A stretch of 64,000 nucleotides of DNA from Escherichia phage vB_EcoM-Ro157c2YLVW. Each line of letters starts with the position of its first letter. Positions within the stretch are counted from its first letter, which is position 1. Below the pieces are notes generated by a model. That model made no database searches and was not told where the DNA came from. It saw only the letters and a program-made list of their open reading frames with translations. A program made the position numbers and the translations under genes. Positions 1,119 through 12,546 of this stretch are shown piece by piece. The stretch lies in sequence record NC_050153.1; one strand, given 5' to 3'.

Positions 1119-4095
1119 TATTTAGCTCCTTTGCCACACCTAATAACAGTTCCAGCAATCCGTCACCATTCATCAGTGATGCGGCAGCGGCCTCTTTGTC
1201 ATGATACAACTGAAGAGCCATAGAGAATACTTCCGTTGCTGACGTTTTGGAAATAGTCGGTGATTTCTGCCGAATTTTCCCGGTGTTACTTACTGAGGCT
1301 GGCGGGTATACCTTCGCCATATAAATATTACTCAATCGAGATCTGAAGCACCATTCAGGCTTGCCACGCCCACCGATATTGACGAAAGATGGCTTATCCC
1401 CTTCAACATTGGCCTTCAGGAATGACCGGGCTTTCTCTAACAAACCTGGGTTACTGTACTCAAGATGATGACCCAGCTCGTGCCACAGTGCACTTGCATT
1501 TTCATCGTTCAAATTGACAGCAACAACACCATTAAGATTTGCATATGCCCTTCCCTGGTGGTGAACCACCTTTGATAAGGTCGAAATTTTACCGCCGGTC
1601 AGGCGATAAATATCAGCAAGTTCCTTGCGCAGGTCTATCCCACCATTCTGTCCAGCGCGGGCTTCTTCCACTTCTTCCGTGATAAAAGAGTCGGCCCACT
1701 CAAGAGCTTTTTCTTCAGATACGGATGAGTTGGCGATCGCACTGTTCATGGCGGATAACACTTTCTCGTGGACCGAACCCATACTTCGCTGATTCATTTG
1801 CCAGCGTGTCTGCGGGTTATATGAGAATCGCTTAAGTAGTTGGTCAAGATGCTCAAGTTCTTCTTCGCTGACATACTTTTTAGCCTCACCAATAATGCCG
1901 GGGAGAATATTGCCGTTAGGATTAAACGCTCGCGAAAGGAAGTGTTTCAGCGCCCCCATGCCCTCCGATGCTTCAATATCACCAATAACCCGGTTAACAA
2001 TGGCCGCACTCTTCGGATTAGCATCCGCCAACGCTCTGACTACAATTTGCAGGGACGATACGACCTCACGCTGCATATCCGTCCTGATCTCATCAATAAA
2101 CTCTGGCGTTATGCCGTGCTCTTTAAGGATATCCCTGCCTTCCGCCGTTACCCCATCGATATCACCGACATGTTTATTAACCCGACTTTGCAATGCCTTA
2201 AATGCCTTCAGAATTCCACGGGCATCATCCGCTTTACTAACGGCCTTCCTGAATGCTGGCAAGAAGTCTGAGTTAACCTCATTTTGTTGATCGGCCCACT
2301 GAATGGAGGCTTCTTTCATCTCGTCCAGAGTCAGATCACCCAACGCGGTATGGTCTGTGAATATGAGCGATAACCTCTGAACCATTTCTGCCAATGGTGA
2401 TGCCGAATGCGCCGCGCTAAGGAATGCTTTCACCCTGGTTGGGCGAATGGAAAACCAGTCAATAGCTGGTGGCATATCTCCGTTTTTTATCGCCTGCGCT
2501 ATCTCGTCAAAGCCATCGCGCCCAAGGGAGGATGCGTGATTTAACAAGCCGCGAAGTAACGAATTGCTGATACCGAATAATCGGCACCATTTTTTCACGT
2601 CGGCAACAGGCATTCGAACAAAATGCGCAAGCACTTGAACAAGCTGTTCATCCTGGGGATCTGTACGGGAAAGCAGCCTGATCAGATGAATAATGTCTTT
2701 GATGCCGGATGCCCGATGTAATAGCAAACTGGTATACGGAGCAACACCGTTGTAACTACCGCCGGAAACGGACTCGAAAAGACCGCCGGATATCCCTTGC
2801 ATGCCTTCGTTTTCCAGTTCCTGAGACACCTGGCGAAGGATATCCTGTAACGACACATCGCCGCCGCCAAACATATCCCCCAGCGCCTGGCCCTGGTGCT
2901 GTAACTCATCATTGATACGTTGCGCCATCAACTTAAAGGCGGTGGCCATACGCTTCGCGCTACGGTTATTCGCGACGATGAACAACGCGAGTGCTTTCAC
3001 TTCCGGGGCCGTTTCGCTGAACATATCCCCCTGAGCAATAACATCGGTAATATGCTGGCCTGACTCCTTCGATTGCCTTACCAGGTCTACCGCATCTTTC
3101 AATGCCGCCAGCGCCTTTTTATCGAGGCTATCCGCTGTCTCAATGCCATCAACAATAGTTGTCACAGCCTGCTTGTGCGCTTCTCCTGATAAAGCCTGCA
3201 TCTGGACAAAATCATTGGCTGCCGCATTAAGCGCCGTCAGAACATTACGCATATCCGGATCAGGTTCTTCTGCAACCATCCTTACCAGGCGCGCATCCTT
3301 ATATGCCTTGGCAAAGATCGCGTTTTGTATACGGTCTACAAGTTGCCGTGTTGGTCGCCCATCTTCAGTTACAAGGCCAGCCGCCTGTGTGGCACCAACT
3401 TGCGTCATAAATCCGCGAATAAACGCGTCATTACTGCGGCTAAGCAGATCTCCGCTTTCTGACGGGTTAAAAAGCGCCATCATCGCCGGTGTTATGCTGT
3501 CGGCATCAACAAAAGCCTTTTCACTGGCTGCCATTTCCTGAAGATCAGAAATATTTGAGTCCTTGGCAAACTGAACGCGGTCAACCTTAGTTAACCGGCG
3601 GCGCACCAGTACCGGAGCCGTCATTGATTCAACCTTTTCAGGTCGTATGCCGAATTCGGTCGCATGATCAATCAGGTACTCACGATACCGATCCGCATTG
3701 CCGTCCTGATAGGCTTTGATGATCCCCATGGTCCGTCCATTACCTGACTCAACGGCATTGTCCTCACCAATTATCGGCGCACCATGGCTGGATAAACCGG
3801 AATCAGTAAGCTGAGCAGGCCGCAAATCTTTGGATATCTGGTTAACCTGAAGAAGGCTGGATGCGCGGGTCCGGTCGCGCGGCTGAAGTTCCTGGGGATA
3901 GTCAGGATTAATTTTCCCATCCAGAGTATTGGATACCAAAAGAGCTGAGGCATCGACGATATCAAACGCTGTTTTTACCTCGTCTCCCTTCGCTGTCACC
4001 ACATACGAAACCCGCCCATAATCGGGCAGGTTCTTTAGCAGCTCGATCAGCGTTTCTATGCTGGTGGCCATTACCACCTGATCGCTTAAGCTCAT
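1108..4095 (-). CDS. large virion/antirestriction-operon protein (DdrB-like) with C-terminal HExxH zincin-like motif
   Basis: 995-aa ORF; motif WHELGHHLEY near C-terminus; position downstream of DarA/DdrA-like genes matches the P1 darA operon order as recalled. Confidence 0.6.
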   Translation of the reverse strand: MSLSDQVVMATSIETLIELLKNLPDYGRVSYVVTAKGDEVKTAFDIVDASALLVSNTLDGKINPDYPQELQPRDRTRASSLLQVNQISKDLRPAQLTDSGLSSHGAPIIGEDNAVESGNGRTMGIIKAYQDGNADRYREYLIDHATEFGIRPEKVESMTAPVLVRRRLTKVDRVQFAKDSNISDLQEMAASEKAFVDADSITPAMMALFNPSESGDLLSRSNDAFIRGFMTQVGATQAAGLVTEDGRPTRQLVDRIQNAIFAKAYKDARLVRMVAEEPDPDMRNVLTALNAAANDFVQMQALSGEAHKQAVTTIVDGIETADSLDKKALAALKDAVDLVRQSKESGQHITDVIAQGDMFSETAPEVKALALFIVANNRSAKRMATAFKLMAQRINDELQHQGQALGDMFGGGDVSLQDILRQVSQELENEGMQGISGGLFESVSGGSYNGVAPYTSLLLHRASGIKDIIHLIRLLSRTDPQDEQLVQVLAHFVRMPVADVKKWCRLFGISNSLLRGLLNHASSLGRDGFDEIAQAIKNGDMPPAIDWFSIRPTRVKAFLSAAHSASPLAEMVQRLSLIFTDHTALGDLTLDEMKEASIQWADQQNEVNSDFLPAFRKAVSKADDARGILKAFKALQSRVNKHVGDIDGVTAEGRDILKEHGITPEFIDEIRTDMQREVVSSLQIVVRALADANPKSAAIVNRVIGDIEASEGMGALKHFLSRAFNPNGNILPGIIGEAKKYVSEEELEHLDQLLKRFSYNPQTRWQMNQRSMGSVHEKVLSAMNSAIANSSVSEEKALEWADSFITEEVEEARAGQNGGIDLRKELADIYRLTGGKISTLSKVVHHQGRAYANLNGVVAVNLNDENASALWHELGHHLEYSNPGLLEKARSFLKANVEGDKPSFVNIGGRGKPEWCFRSRLSNIYMAKVYPPASVSNTGKIRQKSPTISKTSATEVFSMALQLYHDKEAAAASLMNGDGLLELLLGVAKELNNAD

Positions 4096-4107
4096 CCCTG
4101 TTACGCC

Positions 4108-4473
4108 TTATGCTGCCTCTTTAATGTTGGCGGCTATCCATGCCGCCGTGTGCTGTTTAACCTGGTCCAGGTCGATGTATGTGCCAACATATTGACTCAA
4201 ATCCTGCAAGGTACCGATAAATGCATCGGTGCTCTGATCGACGAATTTATCAGCCAGGAAATCAGCAACCAGTTTTGGCACACCATCATGTACCGAAGGT
4301 TGTTTTTCCTCGCCACTACTGCCGCCGGACACACCGTACCCCATCTGTTGCATGATCTGGTCAATTTCATCGCTGATATCCAGCAACTCCATGCCACTCG
4401 CGGTAGCCGCTTTGGACATCAGAGCATCCAACTTATCGCTGAGATCCATTAACTCAATAGCTGATAGTGTCAT
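4108..4473 (-). CDS. DdrA-like small protein of the darA operon
   Basis: 121-aa ORF; start overlaps DarA stop (4470-4473). Confidence 0.5.
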   Translation of the reverse strand: MTLSAIELMDLSDKLDALMSKAATASGMELLDISDEIDQIMQQMGYGVSGGSSGEEKQPSVHDGVPKLVADFLADKFVDQSTDAFIGTLQDLSQYVGTYIDLDQVKQHTAAWIAANIKEAA

Positions 4474-6389
4474 GCCGCTACCCCCGCTTTCTGGATTGCT
4501 ACCAGCAGATCAGCCAGGTGGCGAGCAGCGCCATTAACCAGCTCTTCGTTTTCCTCAAAACGCCCGGCAGCCTGAAGGGCTGCAATCGCTTCCCGGACAT
4601 TACCCCGGGCGTTACGGATCTCCGCCATGTCAGTGCTTTGCATATCCATCACGTTATTGAGATATTCAATGGCTTTATTAGCCTCTGCATCTGCTTCGCT
4701 AACCGTTTCATCAGGCTGTGCCGGGGCAGGTTCTGGCTGAGTAATCTCACCGACTTCGGCCTGCAATGCATTGATCATGCTCTGCACCATTTTCTCGGTG
4801 CCAGCGCCCCCCGGAAACGCAATATTGGGGAAAGTTTTTTGAAACTGAGTTTTCAGCATTACGCGGAACTCGTCTGGTGAGCTGGTGGCCAGCTCCAGAG
4901 CTTTTTGTGCATATTTGCCAAACGGACCATTAGTAAGTGTCTTCGCCAGGAAGTCGAAAGAATCCTCGCGAGGCAATAACTTCAGGTCGTACTCACTCAT
5001 TTGCTGATCAGAAAGCGGGGTATCGTAAGTAGCAATGCCGTAGCGTGCATATTCATAATACGGGTCACCTTCATCAGGGCGAGGCAGAATTGCTTTGTTA
5101 CCTTCAGGTATTGCGCCAGGGGCCGCCGGACGCATTTGCAGGGCATATCGATATGCACCTACAGAGACTTCTGGTTCAGGCGAAGAGCTACCGGTATCCT
5201 CCGCTGGTTCAGGTTCGACGTTTTCCGGTTTATGTTCTTCTGGTTGGACTAGGTATTCCGATACATTACCCGCTTTATAGGCTTTAAACAGCTTGCCGAT
5301 CGCATCTGCCATGTCCACACCCTGTATGGATTTAGCCTTGATCATGTACACGCTGCCATCCGAATCGGTTAACTGGATATACCCTTCGCCGTCCTCAATG
5401 AATTGCTTCATTGATGCACCATTACTGAGCGTCACTTCCCCGTTCATATGCATACGATTTTTGATACTGGCAAGGCGATCCGTCATCGCGCGAGAGTGTC
5501 CACCAGTCATCCCCGCAGGAGCAATGGTATCGCGCCCACCAGTGCGATTGAGCTGATCAATCTCCGTCTGCAAACGCTCATTCTCTTCATAAAGAGAATC
5601 CGCTTCCGATGCAACAGCGTTAATTTTCTGCTCCAGATCTACCTTCTGCCCTTCTACCGCTGCCACCTGATCCACGAGGTCGCTCATGGCATCCTCTTTC
5701 TGGTCACTGTCAGCCTGTAGTTGGGTTATTTCATCAACAAGGGCTTTTTTCTTCTTCTGCGCACGCTGAAATTTTGCCGAGTTTTTCTCTGCAAGGTTGG
5801 CAAGTTTCATGGTGACCTGCGCCAGCGTCATATCACGTCCACTCATCGGAGCAACGGTGTGAGTAACGTCTTTTTTATTCAGTAAGAACTGGAAAGCAAC
5901 CAGCGTATCGCTATTGGTGATCCGGTTTTCCGCTGTCGGGCTATGAAACAGAATGCTGATAGTCTGACCATCACTGAGCGGAATAATGGCTGGCAGGACC
6001 GGCAGCCCGTTAACGTTACGTGCCCGGCCAATTTCAGCACCGCCGATCGCGCGCGCGCCGCTCTGGGCCACATCCCCCGTTTTATCACTCCCCGCAGAGA
6101 TTCCGGTACCATTCAGCTTCTGGTTCAATGCCCGGACAAATGCCTGCATGGTCCGGTGTAACTGCAAACGAGTAGAACTAATCGCCTCCAGTAAATCCGT
6201 AGCACACCAGTGGATCGGCGTGTCATAGAAGAACGTAGCCTCGATTTCCTCCAGGGTGTTGGATTCCGTCATCAGATAGCGGTCCTCACCGGCCATTAAT
6301 GCGCGATATTCATCATCAGTCACTGGCGGGGGAAGCACGTCAAGCCCAGGCTTGATCGTCACCCCTTTATTGATATTGAACTGTTCCAT
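4470..6389 (-). CDS. darA: DarA-like defence-against-restriction / head-associated protein
   Basis: 639-aa ORF with coiled-coil region; shares a paralogous segment (motif KNSAKFQ and flanking residues) with the adjacent 203-aa Hdf-like protein; length and operon position match P1 DarA as recalled. Confidence 0.6.
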   Translation of the reverse strand: MEQFNINKGVTIKPGLDVLPPPVTDDEYRALMAGEDRYLMTESNTLEEIEATFFYDTPIHWCATDLLEAISSTRLQLHRTMQAFVRALNQKLNGTGISAGSDKTGDVAQSGARAIGGAEIGRARNVNGLPVLPAIIPLSDGQTISILFHSPTAENRITNSDTLVAFQFLLNKKDVTHTVAPMSGRDMTLAQVTMKLANLAEKNSAKFQRAQKKKKALVDEITQLQADSDQKEDAMSDLVDQVAAVEGQKVDLEQKINAVASEADSLYEENERLQTEIDQLNRTGGRDTIAPAGMTGGHSRAMTDRLASIKNRMHMNGEVTLSNGASMKQFIEDGEGYIQLTDSDGSVYMIKAKSIQGVDMADAIGKLFKAYKAGNVSEYLVQPEEHKPENVEPEPAEDTGSSSPEPEVSVGAYRYALQMRPAAPGAIPEGNKAILPRPDEGDPYYEYARYGIATYDTPLSDQQMSEYDLKLLPREDSFDFLAKTLTNGPFGKYAQKALELATSSPDEFRVMLKTQFQKTFPNIAFPGGAGTEKMVQSMINALQAEVGEITQPEPAPAQPDETVSEADAEANKAIEYLNNVMDMQSTDMAEIRNARGNVREAIAALQAAGRFEENEELVNGAARHLADLLVAIQKAGVAA

Positions 6390-6390
6390 G

Positions 6391-7002
6391 TTAATTTCCT
6401 GCTTTCAGTTGCTTAAGACGGCGTTTGAGTTCGCCATTTCGGGCCTTTTCGTTATTGAGTCGGCCTGTCTCCTTATCCAGCTTCGCCCGCAAATCAGTGA
6501 TCTGCTGTTGATTGAAAGACACCGAGTTCTGCGCTGATTTATAAGCGGCAACCACCTGAGCATTCCGCTGTTTTGCCTCTTGCAGGCGCTGAAAGTTGGA
6601 TTTTACTGCCGGTTTCTTGTCTACCGGATTGGCAACACGTTTCGCTTTGGCGATCAGTGATTTCTGGAATTTTGCGGAGTTTTTGCGGGCCGCTTGCCCC
6701 ATGACGGTACCAAGCGTCTTGATATCCGGCGACTGAGCGTTAGGAATAGCTTTTCCATTCAGCCTCACAGACGATATATCGCCAGTATCGTTTACCTGTA
6801 TGGCAAGAATTTGTCCGTCGTTAAGAACCAGCTTTGCGGTTTTAACTTTAACGCCATCTTTCGTTGTTGCGCGGTTGCTGGAGTCAACCTCAATTACCGT
6901 AACACCGGTTTTATTGATCGCCGCGATAAGGGATTTCAGCCCCTTTTCATTAACCTGGTCAAAATCGACCGTTGCATACTTATTTTTCGTCATCTGACAC
7001 AT
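6391..7002 (-). CDS. hdf: Hdf-like protein (homolog of DarA fragment)
   Basis: 203-aa ORF; internal segment ...AARKNSAKFQKSL... is paralogous to DarA residues around ...AEKNSAKFQRAQ... Confidence 0.55.
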   Translation of the reverse strand: MCQMTKNKYATVDFDQVNEKGLKSLIAAINKTGVTVIEVDSSNRATTKDGVKVKTAKLVLNDGQILAIQVNDTGDISSVRLNGKAIPNAQSPDIKTLGTVMGQAARKNSAKFQKSLIAKAKRVANPVDKKPAVKSNFQRLQEAKQRNAQVVAAYKSAQNSVSFNQQQITDLRAKLDKETGRLNNEKARNGELKRRLKQLKAGN

Positions 7003-7423
7003 CCTGTGCGAGATTTATTACGTAACTTCTGCGGATTTGCTGAGTAACAGGGAAAATCCGATACAACGGGTTAATGAACGAGTCGCCATGCGTAACCATG
7101 ACGTTGAAATGCCACAGTCGCTCTCCTTTACCCATATATTCAGTGGGTATGTACAACCATTCACTGTTTTCGCCCTGTTCAGCCGACGTCAAACAACGTT
7201 GTTCGCCTTCAATCACTGTCGTCGGCTTCTGAACATCGCGGATCCAATATCTGACTGTTGCGCCGCGCAAAAACGGGAATTTAGACCGGTATTTGAACGG
7301 CACCCGGATGAAACCCGGTTTAATTTCCACATCACCAAGTTCTAAATGCGTGATGTCCTTGCGTTTTAGCAAATAGCGATCGGCTAAGGCTAACGCAAGA
7401 ACGCATACACCCCAGCCAATCAT
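6980..7423 (-). CDS. LydB-like protein (putative antiholin/lysis regulator)
   Basis: 147-aa ORF immediately downstream of and overlapping the holin gene; position-based call. Confidence 0.45.
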   Translation of the reverse strand: MIGWGVCVLALALADRYLLKRKDITHLELGDVEIKPGFIRVPFKYRSKFPFLRGATVRYWIRDVQKPTTVIEGEQRCLTSAEQGENSEWLYIPTEYMGKGERLWHFNVMVTHGDSFINPLYRIFPVTQQIRRSYVINLAQDVSDDEK

Positions 7424-7749
7424 TTCCCGCCTCCCTTTTTCACCAAACTTGTAAGAACATTCAGAATGCTATCGATATTCACTCGTTTCATCCCTGAAAT
7501 CACCTCATGACCGTTATTGCTGGCTATCGTTACCATTAAGTACGTAATTGATAACTCCCAGCCCTCGTGTTGCCCCAATAGGTACGCCACCGCGCCAGCT
7601 GTCACTGCAACAAAGATCTCCGTAACCAATCCCAACAAATTGCCAGACTGGCGACCGTCTCGGACATCCATCAGGAACGTGCCTATCCCACCAATTACTG
7701 AAAGCAGGAGCGCAATAGCAACTGGAGCTAATTCCTGTGTGTCAAGCAC
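7420..7749 (-). CDS. lydA: holin (LydA-like), three predicted transmembrane segments
   Basis: 109-aa ORF, GTG start with GGAGGG RBS; hydrophobic stretches LAPVAIALLLSVIGGIGTFLM, IFVAVTAGAVAYLLG, LSITYLMVTIA; charged C-terminus. Confidence 0.6.
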   Translation of the reverse strand: MLDTQELAPVAIALLLSVIGGIGTFLMDVRDGRQSGNLLGLVTEIFVAVTAGAVAYLLGQHEGWELSITYLMVTIASNNGHEVISGMKRVNIDSILNVLTSLVKKGGGK

Positions 7750-8018
7750 AAGTTCCCTCCTACGTTGTCAGGAGGTAATGGTATGCAAAGTAACTTCTCA
7801 ACCGGTCATGCAAAGACAACAAGCGGAAAAAGAAAAGCAAAGCCTGCTACAACTCGTCAGGGATAAAACTCAGCTCTGGGACTCACAGTTACGGCTAGGC
7901 ATTATTTCCGTTCAGGGTAAACAAAAATTAACCGAGTGGATTCTCTATGCGCAGAAAGTCGAATCCACGGATACCTCCATCCTTCCAGTAACGTTTCCCG
8001 AAAAGCCGGAATGAGGAA

Positions 8019-8036
8019 AGGCCCGGGATCGGGCCT
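8019..8036. terminator. GC hairpin bounding the AT-rich moron (bidirectional terminator candidate)
   Basis: AGGCCCG-GGAT-CGGGCCT perfect stem, followed by TAATTAAT. Confidence 0.45.
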
Positions 8037-8502
8037 TAATTAATATCTATAATCCCAACAAATAAGGGCTAACAATTTTGTTAATTTTCTCTGGATATAA
8101 TGCATGTGCTTTAATATACCTGAAGTTATATTAAAGAGCGTCATGTAAAAATTAAATAAATCAATTAAATCTATTTTCAATAGACAAATCAAAATTTTTA
8201 ACAGATATGTATAGAAATGGCAAGCCATAAATTAATAATGACATCCTTAATAAGCCCAAAGAAACACTGAATAGATAAAATATAAATTATTGCATCCCAA
8301 AATACAGAAAGTAGTGGCAATCTTGCAACTTATTATCAATACAATATTGACATCCCTTTAGTGCTCAGTTTAAAATTAATATTTGTGTTTACATTGTGCG
8401 TTGGTTTAGTTTAGCAGGAACGCAGTAACACACTGATGCTTATTGTTTTAATTATAATGTCGATATATAACCATAGAAACCAAAAATATAGGCAGTTGCA
8501 AT

Positions 8503-9075
8503 ATGTTATGTTACTTAATAGCTATTCACTTTGTCATCTTTGGGAATTCAAAAGCTCTATTGAGCTATTGGATGGCTGAAGTCATCAGGCGAGAAAAAAT
8601 GGATGTTTGGCGACTATTAAGAGAGAAGAGGCAGCGCAATCGGAATTTCCTTTTCTGGTGGAGATTGGCTAATGAAATGCATATTAATGGTAATAAATTA
8701 CATAAGAAAGCAGCCAAAAAGTTAAACAGTAAAATAATTAACAAATTTGGTTGTGAAATTGGATTGGGCGCAAATATTGGAAAAGGGTTAACAATTCCCC
8801 ATCATGCTGGAATTGTTGTTCATTTTGCTGTTGATGCTGGTGAAAATCTGGTGTTACGACAGAATACGACCATTGGACAGATAGATGGTGACATACCTGG
8901 TTCAAGAGTAAAAATTGGTAGCAACGTTGATATCGGAGCTAATTGTTGCATCATTGGATTATCACGTAAAATTGGGGATAATGTAAAAATAGGTGCAATG
9001 TCTTTTATAAATAAAGATATACCATCGAACTGCACATATATTACTAAAAAGAGCGGTGTTGTATTGTATAAATAG
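8503..9075 (+). CDS. hexapeptide-repeat (left-handed beta-helix) acetyltransferase, CysE/WcaB/LacA-like
   Basis: 190-aa ORF in ~30% GC DNA; repeated [LIV]G-x4 hexapeptides (GLGANIGKGLTIPHHAGIVVHFAVDAGENLVL...IGSNVDIGANCCIIG...IGDNVKIGAMSF). Confidence 0.7.
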   Translation: MLCYLIAIHFVIFGNSKALLSYWMAEVIRREKMDVWRLLREKRQRNRNFLFWWRLANEMHINGNKLHKKAAKKLNSKIINKFGCEIGLGANIGKGLTIPHHAGIVVHFAVDAGENLVLRQNTTIGQIDGDIPGSRVKIGSNVDIGANCCIIGLSRKIGDNVKIGAMSFINKDIPSNCTYITKKSGVVLYK

Positions 9076-9082
9076 AGTACAT

Positions 9083-9120
9083 AAAGCCATCAATATTTCT
9101 ATCGATGGCTTTATCTTTTT
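9083..9120 (+). terminator. rho-independent terminator after the acetyltransferase gene
   Basis: Stem AAAGCCATC/GATGGCTTT followed by ATCTTTTT. Confidence 0.6.
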
Positions 9121-9697
9121 ATTGCGGGGCGACTGGCCACTCAACATCCGCTGCTACTGCTGTATCAACACGATTCAACAATACCCGATATGTCTTCCAT
9201 GCAGTCAGTAACGATGCCTCTTCCTCCGTCGCAATATCCAAATCTACGGCATCCTGAAGTGGCGCAATATGCTCACTGGCCATCTGCATCAGGCTGTTTT
9301 TTGTTTCTTCCGCCTTCCGGATCCGGAACAGTTTTTCTGCTTCTGCATCTTTCACCCAGGCTGTGCCGTTCCACTTCTGAAACTCCCCTTCCGGGGATAA
9401 CCAGGTGACATTTTCCGGTAATGGGCCAAGTTCAGAAATAAATAACGCGTCGCCGGAAGCCACGTCATAGACGGTTTTTCCCCGATGGTCTTCAACGAGA
9501 TTCCACGATGCCTCATCACTGTTGAAAACGGCCACGAAGCCAGCCGGAATATCTGGCGGGGCAATATCGGTACTGTTTGCAGGCAGACCTGTATGAGGTG
9601 GAATGTATGCATCACCTTCACCAATAAACTCATTGGTTCCGGTCAGTAGATTATAAATTTTTATGGTCCGTGATTGTTCACTCATTCTGAATGTCAT
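9119..9697 (-). CDS. tail fibre assembly protein (Tfa, U-like)
   Basis: 192-aa ORF directly downstream of the tail fibre gene (stop/start overlap); typical Tfa architecture with conserved N-terminus and variable C-terminus. Confidence 0.75.
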
Positions 9698-12546
9698 TAT
9701 GCAAGCCTCACAATATAGTTAAATGCGATGTTTTTTACGGTGTTTTCTTCGTTACCCGTAGCGTTAACGGTGATGGTGTGTCCGTGGGGACCAATAATGA
9801 CAGAATGGGCATGAGCACCAATGCCGATAGTGTGGTTATGGGCACCGATATATACATTGTGAGCATGCCCGCCTGCGCTCGACGTGGTACCAGTACCTAA
9901 CGCAGCGTTAAAACCGGCTGATACACCATTCCCCGCGCCAGTGTGACCAACAGGTATATTGTGTGAATGATTTCCAGCGCTATTCGTAGTTTTTGTGCCG
10001 TAATCAAATGAACTGGTCGTTTTAGTACCGTAATCAAACGACGATGTGGTTTTCGTCCCCAAATCCGTACTGGATGCGCTGGCGCTGTGGGTGTGCGATT
10101 TAATGCCGTCCTGTTCCTGAGACAATACGGCACGACCACTGCCGGGCTTGCCCTTAATCGTCCAGCCACGCATATCAGGAATAACGCCTGACGGATAAGC
10201 CGCTGCAAGTTTCGGGTATGCAGATTTGTCAAAAGTCTGCCCCTGCATCAGGGCATAACCAGACGGAACGGTATCTGATGGCCACGGGATTGGTGCGCCG
10301 ACTGGGTAGCTTTCTGGTGGAAGATTTTTCGAGGTATAAACTTCTGCCCAGTCTTCCTCAAAACCATAACCGTCTCTTGAAGAACGGTAGAACAGACCAC
10401 CATTTCTGTAATGCGCCTTCATCTGCAAGGTCGGGCAACTTCCGACTCCGGTATAGAAGTTAACCAGAATATAGCTGTCGGCAGAGCGAATGACATTGTA
10501 AGCGCCTGATTCGGCATTCCAGGGAACGCCCCCATCCGCATCGGCATACGTATCCGTTGCTCTTCTGGCAAAAGCAGCAACATGCGCAGCGGTTAAAGTG
10601 ATATCAGTAGAACCATCAAACGAGACGCCATTGATAGTACATGCTGTCTGCAACTTGGTCGCTGTAGCCGCATTACCAGAGGTGTCCTGATCCCCTTTGG
10701 CATTGACGCCGGGAATTGAATCTTTTGACGTATAGACCTGCGCCCATTCAGACCAGTTGGCAGAATCAGTATCACGCCGCGAACGGATATGTACGGGCGC
10801 ATGGTCACCGCTCGTGCCACTCCAGCCAATGAATAACTCACCTTCGCCAGCAGCGGTGGCACCTTTAAGGTGAAGCACATTGCCATAGGTGGAAGGGTAG
10901 CCATTGTTGTATGCCTCATACAGCTGAATCCCGGATGTTCCCTGTGCATTCGCCTCTAGGGCCGTTACGCGACCGCGAGATACCAGAGTATTGATATTAA
11001 TGTCAGCCGAACCATCGAATCTGACGCCATTAATGTTTATGGCTGTTTTTAATTTCGTCGCGGTGTCGGCGTTCCCTGTCAGCGCCCCGGTGATCCCACC
11101 GTTGAAAGTCTGGCGTGCACTCCATTTGTTAGCCGTGCTCAACAGGGGGATCTTTTCACCGCTTGTGCCAAGTTCTCTTAAATCAAGGTATTGGATAACA
11201 GCAAGGACGCTTGTTTTGGCCAGAATATCGCGACCGACTGACGTTAAGTCAGTCTGAGAAATAGTGTCTGTACCGGTAAAGTACGGCAATTTATTTGCGC
11301 CTGTAGCAAGACCAGCAAGCGCGGTTAAAGTTGCATCCAGAGGCTGTTTGCCTGCCAGCGCATTTGTCATTGTTGTCGCAAAGTTCGGGTCATTACCAAG
11401 TGCTGCGGCAAGCTCATTCAGGGTATCAAGAGCTTCTGGTGATGAACCAACCAATGCGGATATGGCAGCTCTTACATAAGCGGTCGTAGCAATCTGCGTG
11501 TTATTCGTACCCTGTGCAGCGGTAGGCGCAGTAGGTATTCCCGTTAATGCAGGACTTGCTAAAGGAGCTTTAAGAGCCAGAGCATTGTTGATAGTTGTGC
11601 TGAAATTCGGGTCGTTATTGATCGCAGCAGCTATTTCTTTAAGCGTATCCAGTGTGCCAGGTGCACCGTTGATAAGTGCCGTTATAGCTGCCTTAACAAA
11701 GGCTGTATTTGCGATCTGCGTGCTATTTGTACCTTGCGCTGCCGTCGGCGCGGTTGGCGTTCCTGTCAGACTCGGGCTTTCTATTGGCGCTTTGGTATCA
11801 GCAAGATCTTTTACAGACTTAACGGCTTTAGGGGTAGCCGCCATTGTTTCGCTGTCGCTGTTAGTTTCGCTACTGAGCTGAACTAATCCCTTTTGCGTTG
11901 TGCTTGCATCCTGCGCCGTATACTTACTGTTCGCCAGATCGTAGGCTTTTTTAACTGCCAGCGAACTTGCAGCAACATCACTTCTGCTACTGGTTACAGA
12001 GTCTGAAATATCAATGCCGATCGTGCGGTTAATACGCTCGGATGTATCAATCATCTCCTGGGTAATGGCTGATACTCCAGCAGGGATATTCACCGTACAA
12101 ACAAGCAGCTCCCCATCTCCTAACTGATATGAATCGGTATAGGTTCTGGTAACAAATTCAGCCGCATGAATATGTGACGCGGTATTAACCTGATAGGTAT
12201 CCTCTCCAAGGAGGTATCTTCCCTTCAGCACAATTGCATATTTCTTGCCTGCACTAAGTGCAAGAGGAATATCCGTACATTGCTGAATAGTTACCTGGTA
12301 GAATTCACCAATATCCACCGACGCCGCGCCTGCGGTTTTATCTCCATCCACTGAGGTGATTAACAGGTTCATCCCACCGCCAGGCTTAGGTAAGAAACCG
12401 GCATAAAATCCCGGGTCAACAATCCCCCTGAATTTTCGGTTTAGCGCGGCTGACAGATATGGTTCGTGGTATTGCACATCAGCAACCAGAGCCAACGACT
12501 CGGGTGATGGGTAAGTAACCGATGTAACAACTGTAACGTCATTCAT
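9697..12546 (-). CDS. tail fibre protein (S-like)
   Basis: Long ORF; likely start at MNDVTVV (ATG 12546, AAGGA RBS); tandem ~55-aa tail-fibre repeats (...[22 protein letters not shown]...) and His-rich C-terminal tip with [10 protein letters not shown] x3 and HxH boxes. Confidence 0.8.

Follow-up and report, generated by a model that had tools for sequence, protein, structure and literature searches.

An acyltransferase moron at the rebuilt and frozen tail-fibre locus of a P1-like phage-plasmid

Why does an AT-rich segment with a single gene interrupt the tail-fibre locus of a P1-like phage, where did it come from, and what might its product modify? The DNA concerned is a 64,000-nucleotide stretch of Escherichia phage vB_EcoM-Ro157c2YLVW (NC_050153.1; hereafter the window), which represents a P1-like (Punavirus) phage-plasmid. 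Positions 8019-9120 of the window hold a cassette with one gene for a putative acetyltransferase. In the present analysis, the cassette was shown to be a self-contained, horizontally acquired moron; its product is a stand-alone acyltransferase whose fold resembles that of serine acetyltransferases, and the gene came in with a fibre module known from P2-like prophages. We further propose that the product O-acetylates an envelope sugar; taken as a whole, this account stands about evenly between right and wrong in our judgement, and the uncertainty lies chiefly in the function. A prophage moron with a beta-helix acetyltransferase is a kind of element already well known, and the sequence itself occurs many times in GenBank, annotated by the Prokaryotic Genome Annotation Pipeline (PGAP). 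What is added here is the anatomy of the locus (a cassette at the U'|U junction, a frozen C-segment and a module also present in P2-like prophages), the connection with the tail-fibre hotspot of P2, and the evidence against the 'serine acetyltransferase' label and the Gene Ontology (GO) term that goes with it.

An earlier note on the window had described the segment as a moron of strikingly low guanine-plus-cytosine (GC) content, and this description was borne out when GC content and codon usage were calculated. The GC content was 31.7% at 8040-9110 and 32% at 8038-9114, compared to 47.5% over the whole window. Among all 1,071-bp intervals of the 64 kb (mean 47.6%, standard deviation 3.0), this one was the minimum, approximately 5 standard deviations below the mean. 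The leader upstream of the gene (8040-8502) had a GC content of 27% and the acetyltransferase open reading frame (ORF) one of 35%. The GC content at third codon positions (GC3) was 0.30 in the ORF and 0.45-0.53 in the neighbouring phage genes; rare codons made up 13% of the ORF and 3-7% of the neighbours. The segment is thus a compositionally foreign single-gene insertion, and it carries a promoter-like site and a terminator-like hairpin of its own (both considered below).

The insertion point was established by synteny with P1 and with phage JL22 (ON018986.2). In P1, U' and U, the two chaperone genes, run towards each other in the middle of the invertible C-segment and are separated by a 28-bp spacer. 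The cassette occupies this U'|U junction in the window, and in JL22 the gene order is cin, Sv', U', cassette, tfa, stf, with both cix sites intact. An extra gene is therefore present between conserved genes in the window and in JL22, at a place where P1 has the 28-bp spacer, and the assignment of the cassette to the C-segment position agrees with both comparisons.

The two ends of the cassette are of different origin. The left hairpin (Table 1) folded with -15.8 kcal/mol (z -1.7), and since the U'|U spacer of P1 holds an identical stem, AAGGCCCG-ATAG-CGGGCCTT, it represents P1's own terminator. The right hairpin has arms that are 93% complementary, with a T-run 3' of it on the plus strand. It folded with -17.2 and -20.5 kcal/mol (z -5.7 and -6.8), and none of 200 shuffled sequences was equally stable. 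Judged from the sequence, it resembles a bidirectional terminator; its conservation in the P2-like prophage copies of the gene assigns it to the imported DNA. Of the GC hairpins that had been claimed on both sides, the left one is indeed GC-rich, whereas the right one is strong but of mixed composition. A transposon-like insertion was ruled out, as neither flanking direct repeats nor terminal inverted repeats were found; the absence of flanking direct repeats indicates that the cassette arrived by recombination rather than by transposition.

Does the cassette stand in place of the invertible segment? JL22 answers the question, since it has both: there, a functional invertible segment encloses the acetyltransferase gene. 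A P1 C-segment comprises cin, two inverted cix sites and alternative Sv/U sets, and JL22 carries all of these, whereas the window does not. Positions 6000-7809 of the window correspond to 1314-3123 of the JL22 locus, and 7811-10299 correspond to 6001-8489. Compared with JL22, which has a full U' and both cix sites, the window thus lacks 2,877 bp that comprise lydC, cin, Sv' and the 5' part of U'. The window was therefore frozen by a separate 2.9-kb deletion that included cin, and not by the cassette. This deletion came later than the cassette and, by removing lydC, cin, Sv' and most of U', locked the C-segment in one orientation. Neither cixL nor cin was found within the window, and the claim that a recombinase is absent was upheld. 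The companion claim that no alternative fibre ORFs are left has to be corrected, since a 78-amino-acid (aa) U' remnant and an orphan cixR-like site are still present. The remnant covers positions 36-131 of the Pfam Caudo_TAP profile and matches phrog_3792 and phrog_136; in the near-identical plasmid pF1273-3, PGAP names it 'tail fiber assembly protein'. The orphan site (11176-11195, TCTTAAATCAAGGTATTGGA) differs from P1 cixR by 1 mismatch and lies inside the fibre gene.

Several minor features of the deletion were also observed. The junction falls at ~7809/7811, just past a match to the P1 late promoter LPdar. LPdar, the promoter of the darA operon, was spared (region 7750-7815). The 78-aa ORF is a chimera made by the junction, and AGGAGG lies just upstream of it. 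Plasmids pF1273-3 and pO111_2 have the same deleted form. A host invertase acting at the orphan cixR-like site would find no partner site.

To trace the origin of the gene, relatives of the locus were compared. From codon 26 of the acetyltransferase gene, the sequence continues through the hairpin and tfa into the last ~600 bp of the fibre gene, its receptor-binding end, as one block that was 97.2% identical over 1,730 bp to a P2-like prophage of E. coli O104:H4 C227-11, and 93.3% identical over 1,077 bp to one of EDL933. In both prophages, the gene is flanked by gpU on one side and by a convergent tfa on the other. Since the block spans the gene, tfa and the fibre end, the gene came to the P1 lineage with a swap of the fibre tip and its chaperone. 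The tfa DNA was ~90% identical to lambda tfa. Based on these alignments, the fibre-adjacent position most simply results from co-transfer with the fibre tip and chaperone module out of a known P2-type cargo hotspot; the P1-like lineage gained the gene by recombination, along with a lambda/P2-type fibre tip and tfa, and the gene thereby came to lie at the U'|U junction. The prophage copies (WP_000954203.1 and WP_000954195.1, both named 'serine O-acetyltransferase') have 190 aa and 90-91% protein identity to the window protein, and share with it the terminator hairpin, the convergent tfa and the gene-tfa-fibre tip block. They differ in their P2-like backbone (gpU/tfa), in a leader of their own with a strong Shine-Dalgarno sequence, in a GTG start and in the first 25 codons, which come from a diverged allele.

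The same setting recurs among phage-borne homologues. In a viral set of 22 diverse loci, chosen out of 80 related ones and spanning 43-90% protein identity, a tfa or fibre gene was near the homologue in 15 loci and directly adjacent in 12 of them. The arrangements include J-I-H-G-[gene, antisense]-FI-FII, which is that of canonical P2, and H-G-151 aa-[gene], all co-directional. The homologue keeps its fibre-adjacent place down to 43% identity, beside differing tfa alleles. Thus, the acetyltransferase family is a recurrent cargo beside the chaperone gene of P2-like phages, and the slot that it takes in phages is the counterpart of the P2 'Z/fun' hotspot, described as a site of mixed cargo, fibre swaps and invertases (bioRxiv 10.1101/2024.10.15.618418). 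Like the Z/fun cargo of P2, the homologues in canonical P2-like loci lie between G (tfa) and FI (sheath), are AT-rich and are often antisense to the late genes; unlike it, they encode an unrelated protein, and an exclusion phenotype is not known for the acetyltransferase. The fibre association holds for the phage-borne copies. In a collection with one genome per species, tail-fibre neighbours were found at 6 of the best 80 loci, the rest being single-gene islets with mixed neighbours.

Among 5,426 complete E. coli genomes, 530 (approximately 1 in 10) carry the gene, mostly on the chromosome. The full cassette including the leader was present in 65 of them, in every case on a P1-like plasmid. 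The 1.1-kb cassette was 100% identical in pF1273-3 of E. coli O157:H7, with 99.5% identity over the surrounding 7.5 kb; pF1273-3, pO111_2 and similar E. coli P1-like plasmids carry identical genes. JL22 carries this cassette at the corresponding position (97.6% DNA identity over 83% of a 2.4-kb query), where the gene is named sacF and a shorter protein is annotated.

Is the gene in use? The ratio of nonsynonymous to synonymous substitution rates (dN/dS) was 0.07-0.25 in every pairwise comparison, the first 25 codons of the diverged allele included, so the 190-codon frame is real and constrained throughout. Such purifying selection implies that the gene is in use. The 158-aa reading, with a start at 8599, was disfavoured, since the first 32 codons had a dN/dS of ~0.15 and carry motifs that are nearly invariant family-wide.

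The expression signals are less uniform. The 465-bp leader has stop codons throughout all six frames. It contains a promoter-like sigma-70 site, TTGACA-18-TAAAAT (8347-8376), which is near-consensus with a score of 11/12, such sites being no more numerous than in shuffled sequences. In the P2-like copies the leader is a different one of 157 bp, with a promoter-like site of its own, TTGAAT-17-TATAAT, and the GTG start is preceded by AAGGAG; compared to it, the window leader has a 20-bp gap that removes the strong Shine-Dalgarno sequence. A decayed minus-strand gene in the leader (~105 codons with 2 stops) was considered and rejected as non-coding, with 74% aa identity at ~93% DNA identity; tblastn matched this frame solely in the same P1-like plasmids, and no intact relative was found. 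No RNA family was found within 8019-9120 in Rfam at E up to 1. The sole tandem array is a weak one of 9 bp x 3 at 8149-8175, in the leader.

The product itself is confidently predicted to be a left-handed beta-helix (hexapeptide-repeat) acyltransferase. In a monomer model, five N-terminal helices (residues 2-82) are followed by a left-handed beta-helix (~84-180) with the hexapeptide-repeat fold, which agrees with the earlier description of a single plus-strand gene for such an enzyme. Its family, phrog_2154, is uncharacterised, small and tight: when 1.84 billion representative proteins were searched with a profile, 69 matched at E up to 1e-30, and beyond these the matches merged into the large CysE/WcaB-like group. 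Residue H100 aligned to the catalytic His158 of CysE and was conserved in 90% or more of 56 family members, and E85 aligned to CysE Asp143. The family invariants include R54 in 'FWWRLA' and R119, Q120, N121 and T123 in 'RQNTTIG'.

The first reading to be weighed is the one in the annotation, namely that the enzyme is a genuine serine O-acetyltransferase (CysE, EC 2.3.1.30) and the gene an auxiliary metabolic gene, whose O-acetylserine would raise cysteine production or free it from regulation, either in the lysogen or while the phage grows. Every top sequence and fold match in the PDB was a serine acetyltransferase, PGAP and the JL22 authors both use this name, and the catalytic His is kept, as is an acidic residue at the Asp143 position. 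The match to E. coli CysE (1t3d) reached 30 bits only, however, and the scores against TIGR01172 (59.6 vs a cut-off of 210.65) and NF008349 (35.6 vs 397 bits) were at most a third of the cut-offs. In E. coli numbering, CysE binds serine through Asp92, Asp157, Arg192 and His193. When the protein was aligned with the Yersinia and soybean enzymes, Asp157 was replaced by Pro99, His193 was deleted, the Arg192 position was variable across the family, and the part of the N-domain that bears Asp92 had no counterpart. The N-domain, with ~80 residues, is about half the length of the ~140 residues in serine acetyltransferases, and no match to Pfam SATase_N was found. CysE binds CysK through a C-terminal Ile tail; the window protein ends with ...VVLYK a few residues past the beta-helix and has no such tail. 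Moreover, every host already has cysE. The earlier view that the protein is not the host's housekeeping serine acetyltransferase therefore survived the homology search, and we consider a true serine acetyltransferase highly improbable. The 'serine acetyltransferase' label is not supported by the sequence evidence, and neither is the GO term 'cysteine biosynthetic process from serine', which was attached by electronic inference to the gene on pO111_2 (L023) and to many RefSeq records.

If serine is not the acceptor, the target may still be an intracellular or small molecule, with a role in defence, counter-defence or detoxifying acetylation as in CatB, Vat, LacA or Maa. The relatives are single genes on prophages, plasmids and islets without pathway partners, the phage copies sit in a hotspot with defence-like cargo, and maltose and galactoside O-acetyltransferases were among the weaker sequence and fold matches. 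On the other hand, no PADLOC-DB 2.0 defence model matched at E up to 1, and a report in the literature was not found; we regard a target of this type as unlikely. The gene could also be a passenger of the P1-like plasmid, dragged in with the fibre tip and chaperone swap, poorly expressed and without benefit. The recombination block that starts inside the gene, the 20 bp lost together with the strong Shine-Dalgarno sequence, and the decay of the locus elsewhere (deletion, U' stub, orphan cix site) fit this explanation, but the ORF was intact in 65 of 65 P1-like plasmids with the full cassette, with a dN/dS of 0.15-0.21 among these copies, and a near-consensus promoter-like site lies upstream. 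Furthermore, a fibre-adjacent place kept down to 43% identity beside differing tfa alleles calls for more than one hitch-hiking event. On balance, a mere passenger seems quite unlikely to us.

The reading that we prefer is O-acetylation of an envelope sugar. The gene is probably expressed in the lysogen from its own promoter, and the enzyme would use acetyl-CoA to O-acetylate a hydroxyl of a host molecule other than L-serine, the likeliest acceptor being an envelope glycan precursor sugar at the cytoplasmic face of the inner membrane. The resulting surface change might lead to lysogenic conversion or to the exclusion of other phages, as is the case for NeuO acting on the K1 capsule. A sugar acceptor is our best guess, drawn by analogy, for four reasons. 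The nearest named subfamilies, EpsC and WcaB, work in polysaccharide loci; distant homologues adjoin NeuB, GT2, GT25, WaaP-like or AT3-SGNH genes; an HtrL_YibB gene accompanies the homologue in two phage loci; and NeuO provides the precedent of a prophage-borne beta-helix O-acetyltransferase. EpsC- and WcaB-type models were the best NCBIfam matches besides CysE and scored about equal to it, although far below their cut-offs (EpsC, 70 vs 150; WcaB, TIGR04016, 52.7 vs 194.65, and NF007564, 54 vs 196). WcaB (colanic acid) and EpsC resemble the window protein in size (~160-190 aa) and in a short helical N-terminus followed by the beta-helix, but the window gene lies in a tail-fibre locus, outside any wca or eps cluster. 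Regarding the neighbours, the downstream gene was scanned at 75 homologues out of the best 80 loci in the one-genome-per-species collection; 5 of these homologues adjoin NeuB, within a cluster that also holds a glycosyltransferase-like gene and genes for an aminotransferase and an ATP-binding cassette (ABC) transporter.

NeuO of prophage CUS-3 in E. coli K1 is likewise encoded by a single prophage gene and folds as a left-handed beta-helix; it O-acetylates polysialic acid and thereby alters a surface glycan and phage sensitivity (PMC3046976, PMC13001214). Neither sequence kinship nor close structural kinship to NeuO (3jqy) was found for the window protein. Genes of the NeuO type have phase-variable tandem repeats in the 5' coding region. 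The window ORF has no tandem repeats, and NeuO-like phase variation was ruled out.

A number of observations weigh against the envelope-sugar reading. The gene plausibly has its own promoter and terminator, but these putative signals are consensus matches only, and loss of the strong Shine-Dalgarno sequence leaves the expression level of the P1-like copy uncertain. The nearest homologues occur singly, in unrelated gene neighbourhoods: they lie at a prophage end by a hok-like gene, on the enteropathogenic E. coli (EPEC) adherence factor (EAF) plasmid downstream of bfp, in islets near rpoD or the arn operon, and on a Pseudomonas plasmid. The carriers of the gene span many O-serogroups with different O-antigens, which argues against an O-antigen-specific acceptor. 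A permissive slot together with hitch-hiking is no worse an explanation of the fibre link than a functional tie, and neither an acceptor nor a tie to any surface polymer was found in this analysis. The modification of O-antigen, capsule or receptor that the earlier note had suggested thus gained no support, given that the closest relatives stand alone, that the carriers belong to many O-serogroups, and that the proximity to the fibre gene is explained by co-transfer. O-antigen or capsule clusters were not found around the closer homologues, while some distant homologues lie in glycan clusters. Because of the many serogroups, and because none of the close relatives lies in an O-antigen cluster, a glycan acceptor, if any, should be a conserved one. 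Acetylation of a surface glycan by the enzyme remains plausible on the analogies given above.

The literature offers little on this point. The JL22 paper noted the gene and stated that the reason for its presence is unknown (PMC9603915). Acetyltransferases go unmentioned in the P2/P4 hotspot paper, which deals with the other of the P2 hotspots, and no specific report on the function of the gene was found. A more far-reaching idea, which we put forward as speculative and improbable, is that phrog_2154 is a dedicated cytoplasmic partner of the fibre module that masks the receptor against phages of the same fibre class by acetylating a conserved envelope glycan precursor (lipopolysaccharide core or undecaprenyl-diphosphate-linked sugar). 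The tip, the chaperone and the enzyme would then move between P2-like and P1-like phages as a unit, and in JL22-type phages each inversion of the segment would reverse the direction of the gene with respect to the late fibre transcript.

Whatever the acceptor, the locus is a clear case of a P1 host-range segment that was rebuilt by import of a P2/lambda-type fibre and then frozen by the loss of cin. Among the carriers of the gene are O157:H7 EDL933, the strain of the O104:H4 outbreak and also P1-like phage-plasmids, through which resistance genes spread. If envelope-sugar acetylation is true, the gene would be a widespread and overlooked factor of lysogenic conversion or exclusion that is tied to tail-fibre exchange; if it is false, the gene would be one more orphan moron. 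The features of the locus are listed in Table 1; in pF1273-3, PGAP annotates the fibre gene as a 2,850-bp 'phage tail protein'.

Table 1. Features of the tail-fibre locus in the window
Feature	Position	Strand	Remarks
U' remnant, 78 aa	7778-8014	+	C-terminal part of the Caudo_TAP domain only
GC-rich hairpin, AAGGCCCG-GGAT-CGGGCCTT	8018-8037		Ancestral bidirectional U'/U terminator; cassette starts directly after it
AT-rich non-coding leader, 27% GC	8038-8502	+	Known only from P1-like plasmids
Acetyltransferase gene, 190 aa	8503-9075	+	phrog_2154; PGAP 'serine O-acetyltransferase'; JL22 'sacF', start at 8599
Co-transferred block	8577-10305		Acetyltransferase codons 26-190, hairpin, tfa and last ~600 bp of the fibre gene
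Hairpin with 15-nt arms (inverted repeat I2)	9081-9114		Between the converging acetyltransferase and tfa genes; looks like a terminator
tfa, lambda-type	9119-9697	-	Replaces P1's U; full-length Pfam Caudo_TAP match, E 3e-42
Chimeric fibre gene S/stf	9697-12546	-	P1-type N-terminal part, lambda/P2-type C-terminal tip

Some loci of the relatives deserve a separate description. In three Halopseudomonas and Pseudomonas loci (L142, L136 and L175, ~1500-8500), homologues with 41-44% identity lie in a conserved cluster of NeuB-family, GT28-like, class III aminotransferase and ABC exporter genes; this may be a nonulosonic-acid glycan locus, and possibly a hint at the ancestral acceptor of the family. 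In two phage loci (L090, 3753-4610, and L091, 1591-2445, both on the minus strand), an HtrL_YibB gene (Pfam E 9e-79) is convergent with a 62%-identical homologue, and tfa and fibre genes come next. L090-L092 have in common an 89-aa ORF that immediately precedes the acetyltransferase gene. A conserved upstream partner gene was nevertheless rejected as a general feature, since the 73-109-aa ORFs at several loci were mutually unrelated, save for the L090-L092 trio and the L103/L104 pair.

In three P2-like prophages of E. coli (L005-L007, 6617-8244), a 67%-identical homologue is followed by an 87-aa truncated tfa, a class I methyltransferase gene and a full tfa, a layout that shows repeated cargo insertion and fibre-module turnover at the slot. 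A homologue with 55% identity (P0039) was found on EAF-type virulence plasmids of EPEC (L013-L016, 6001-6594) beside IS66 remnants, a few genes downstream of the bundle-forming-pilus genes (T2SSE, prepilin peptidase, SLT); since P0039 resides on such plasmids, the family is also a virulence-plasmid cargo. Finally, the tfa segment 9156-9354 (minus strand) gave a full-length match to Rfam IS009 (RF02111; 192.7 bits vs a gathering threshold of 117, E 5.5e-48). Because the match lies wholly inside the tfa coding sequence, it suggests that this 'RNA family' model mostly captures conserved tfa sequence.

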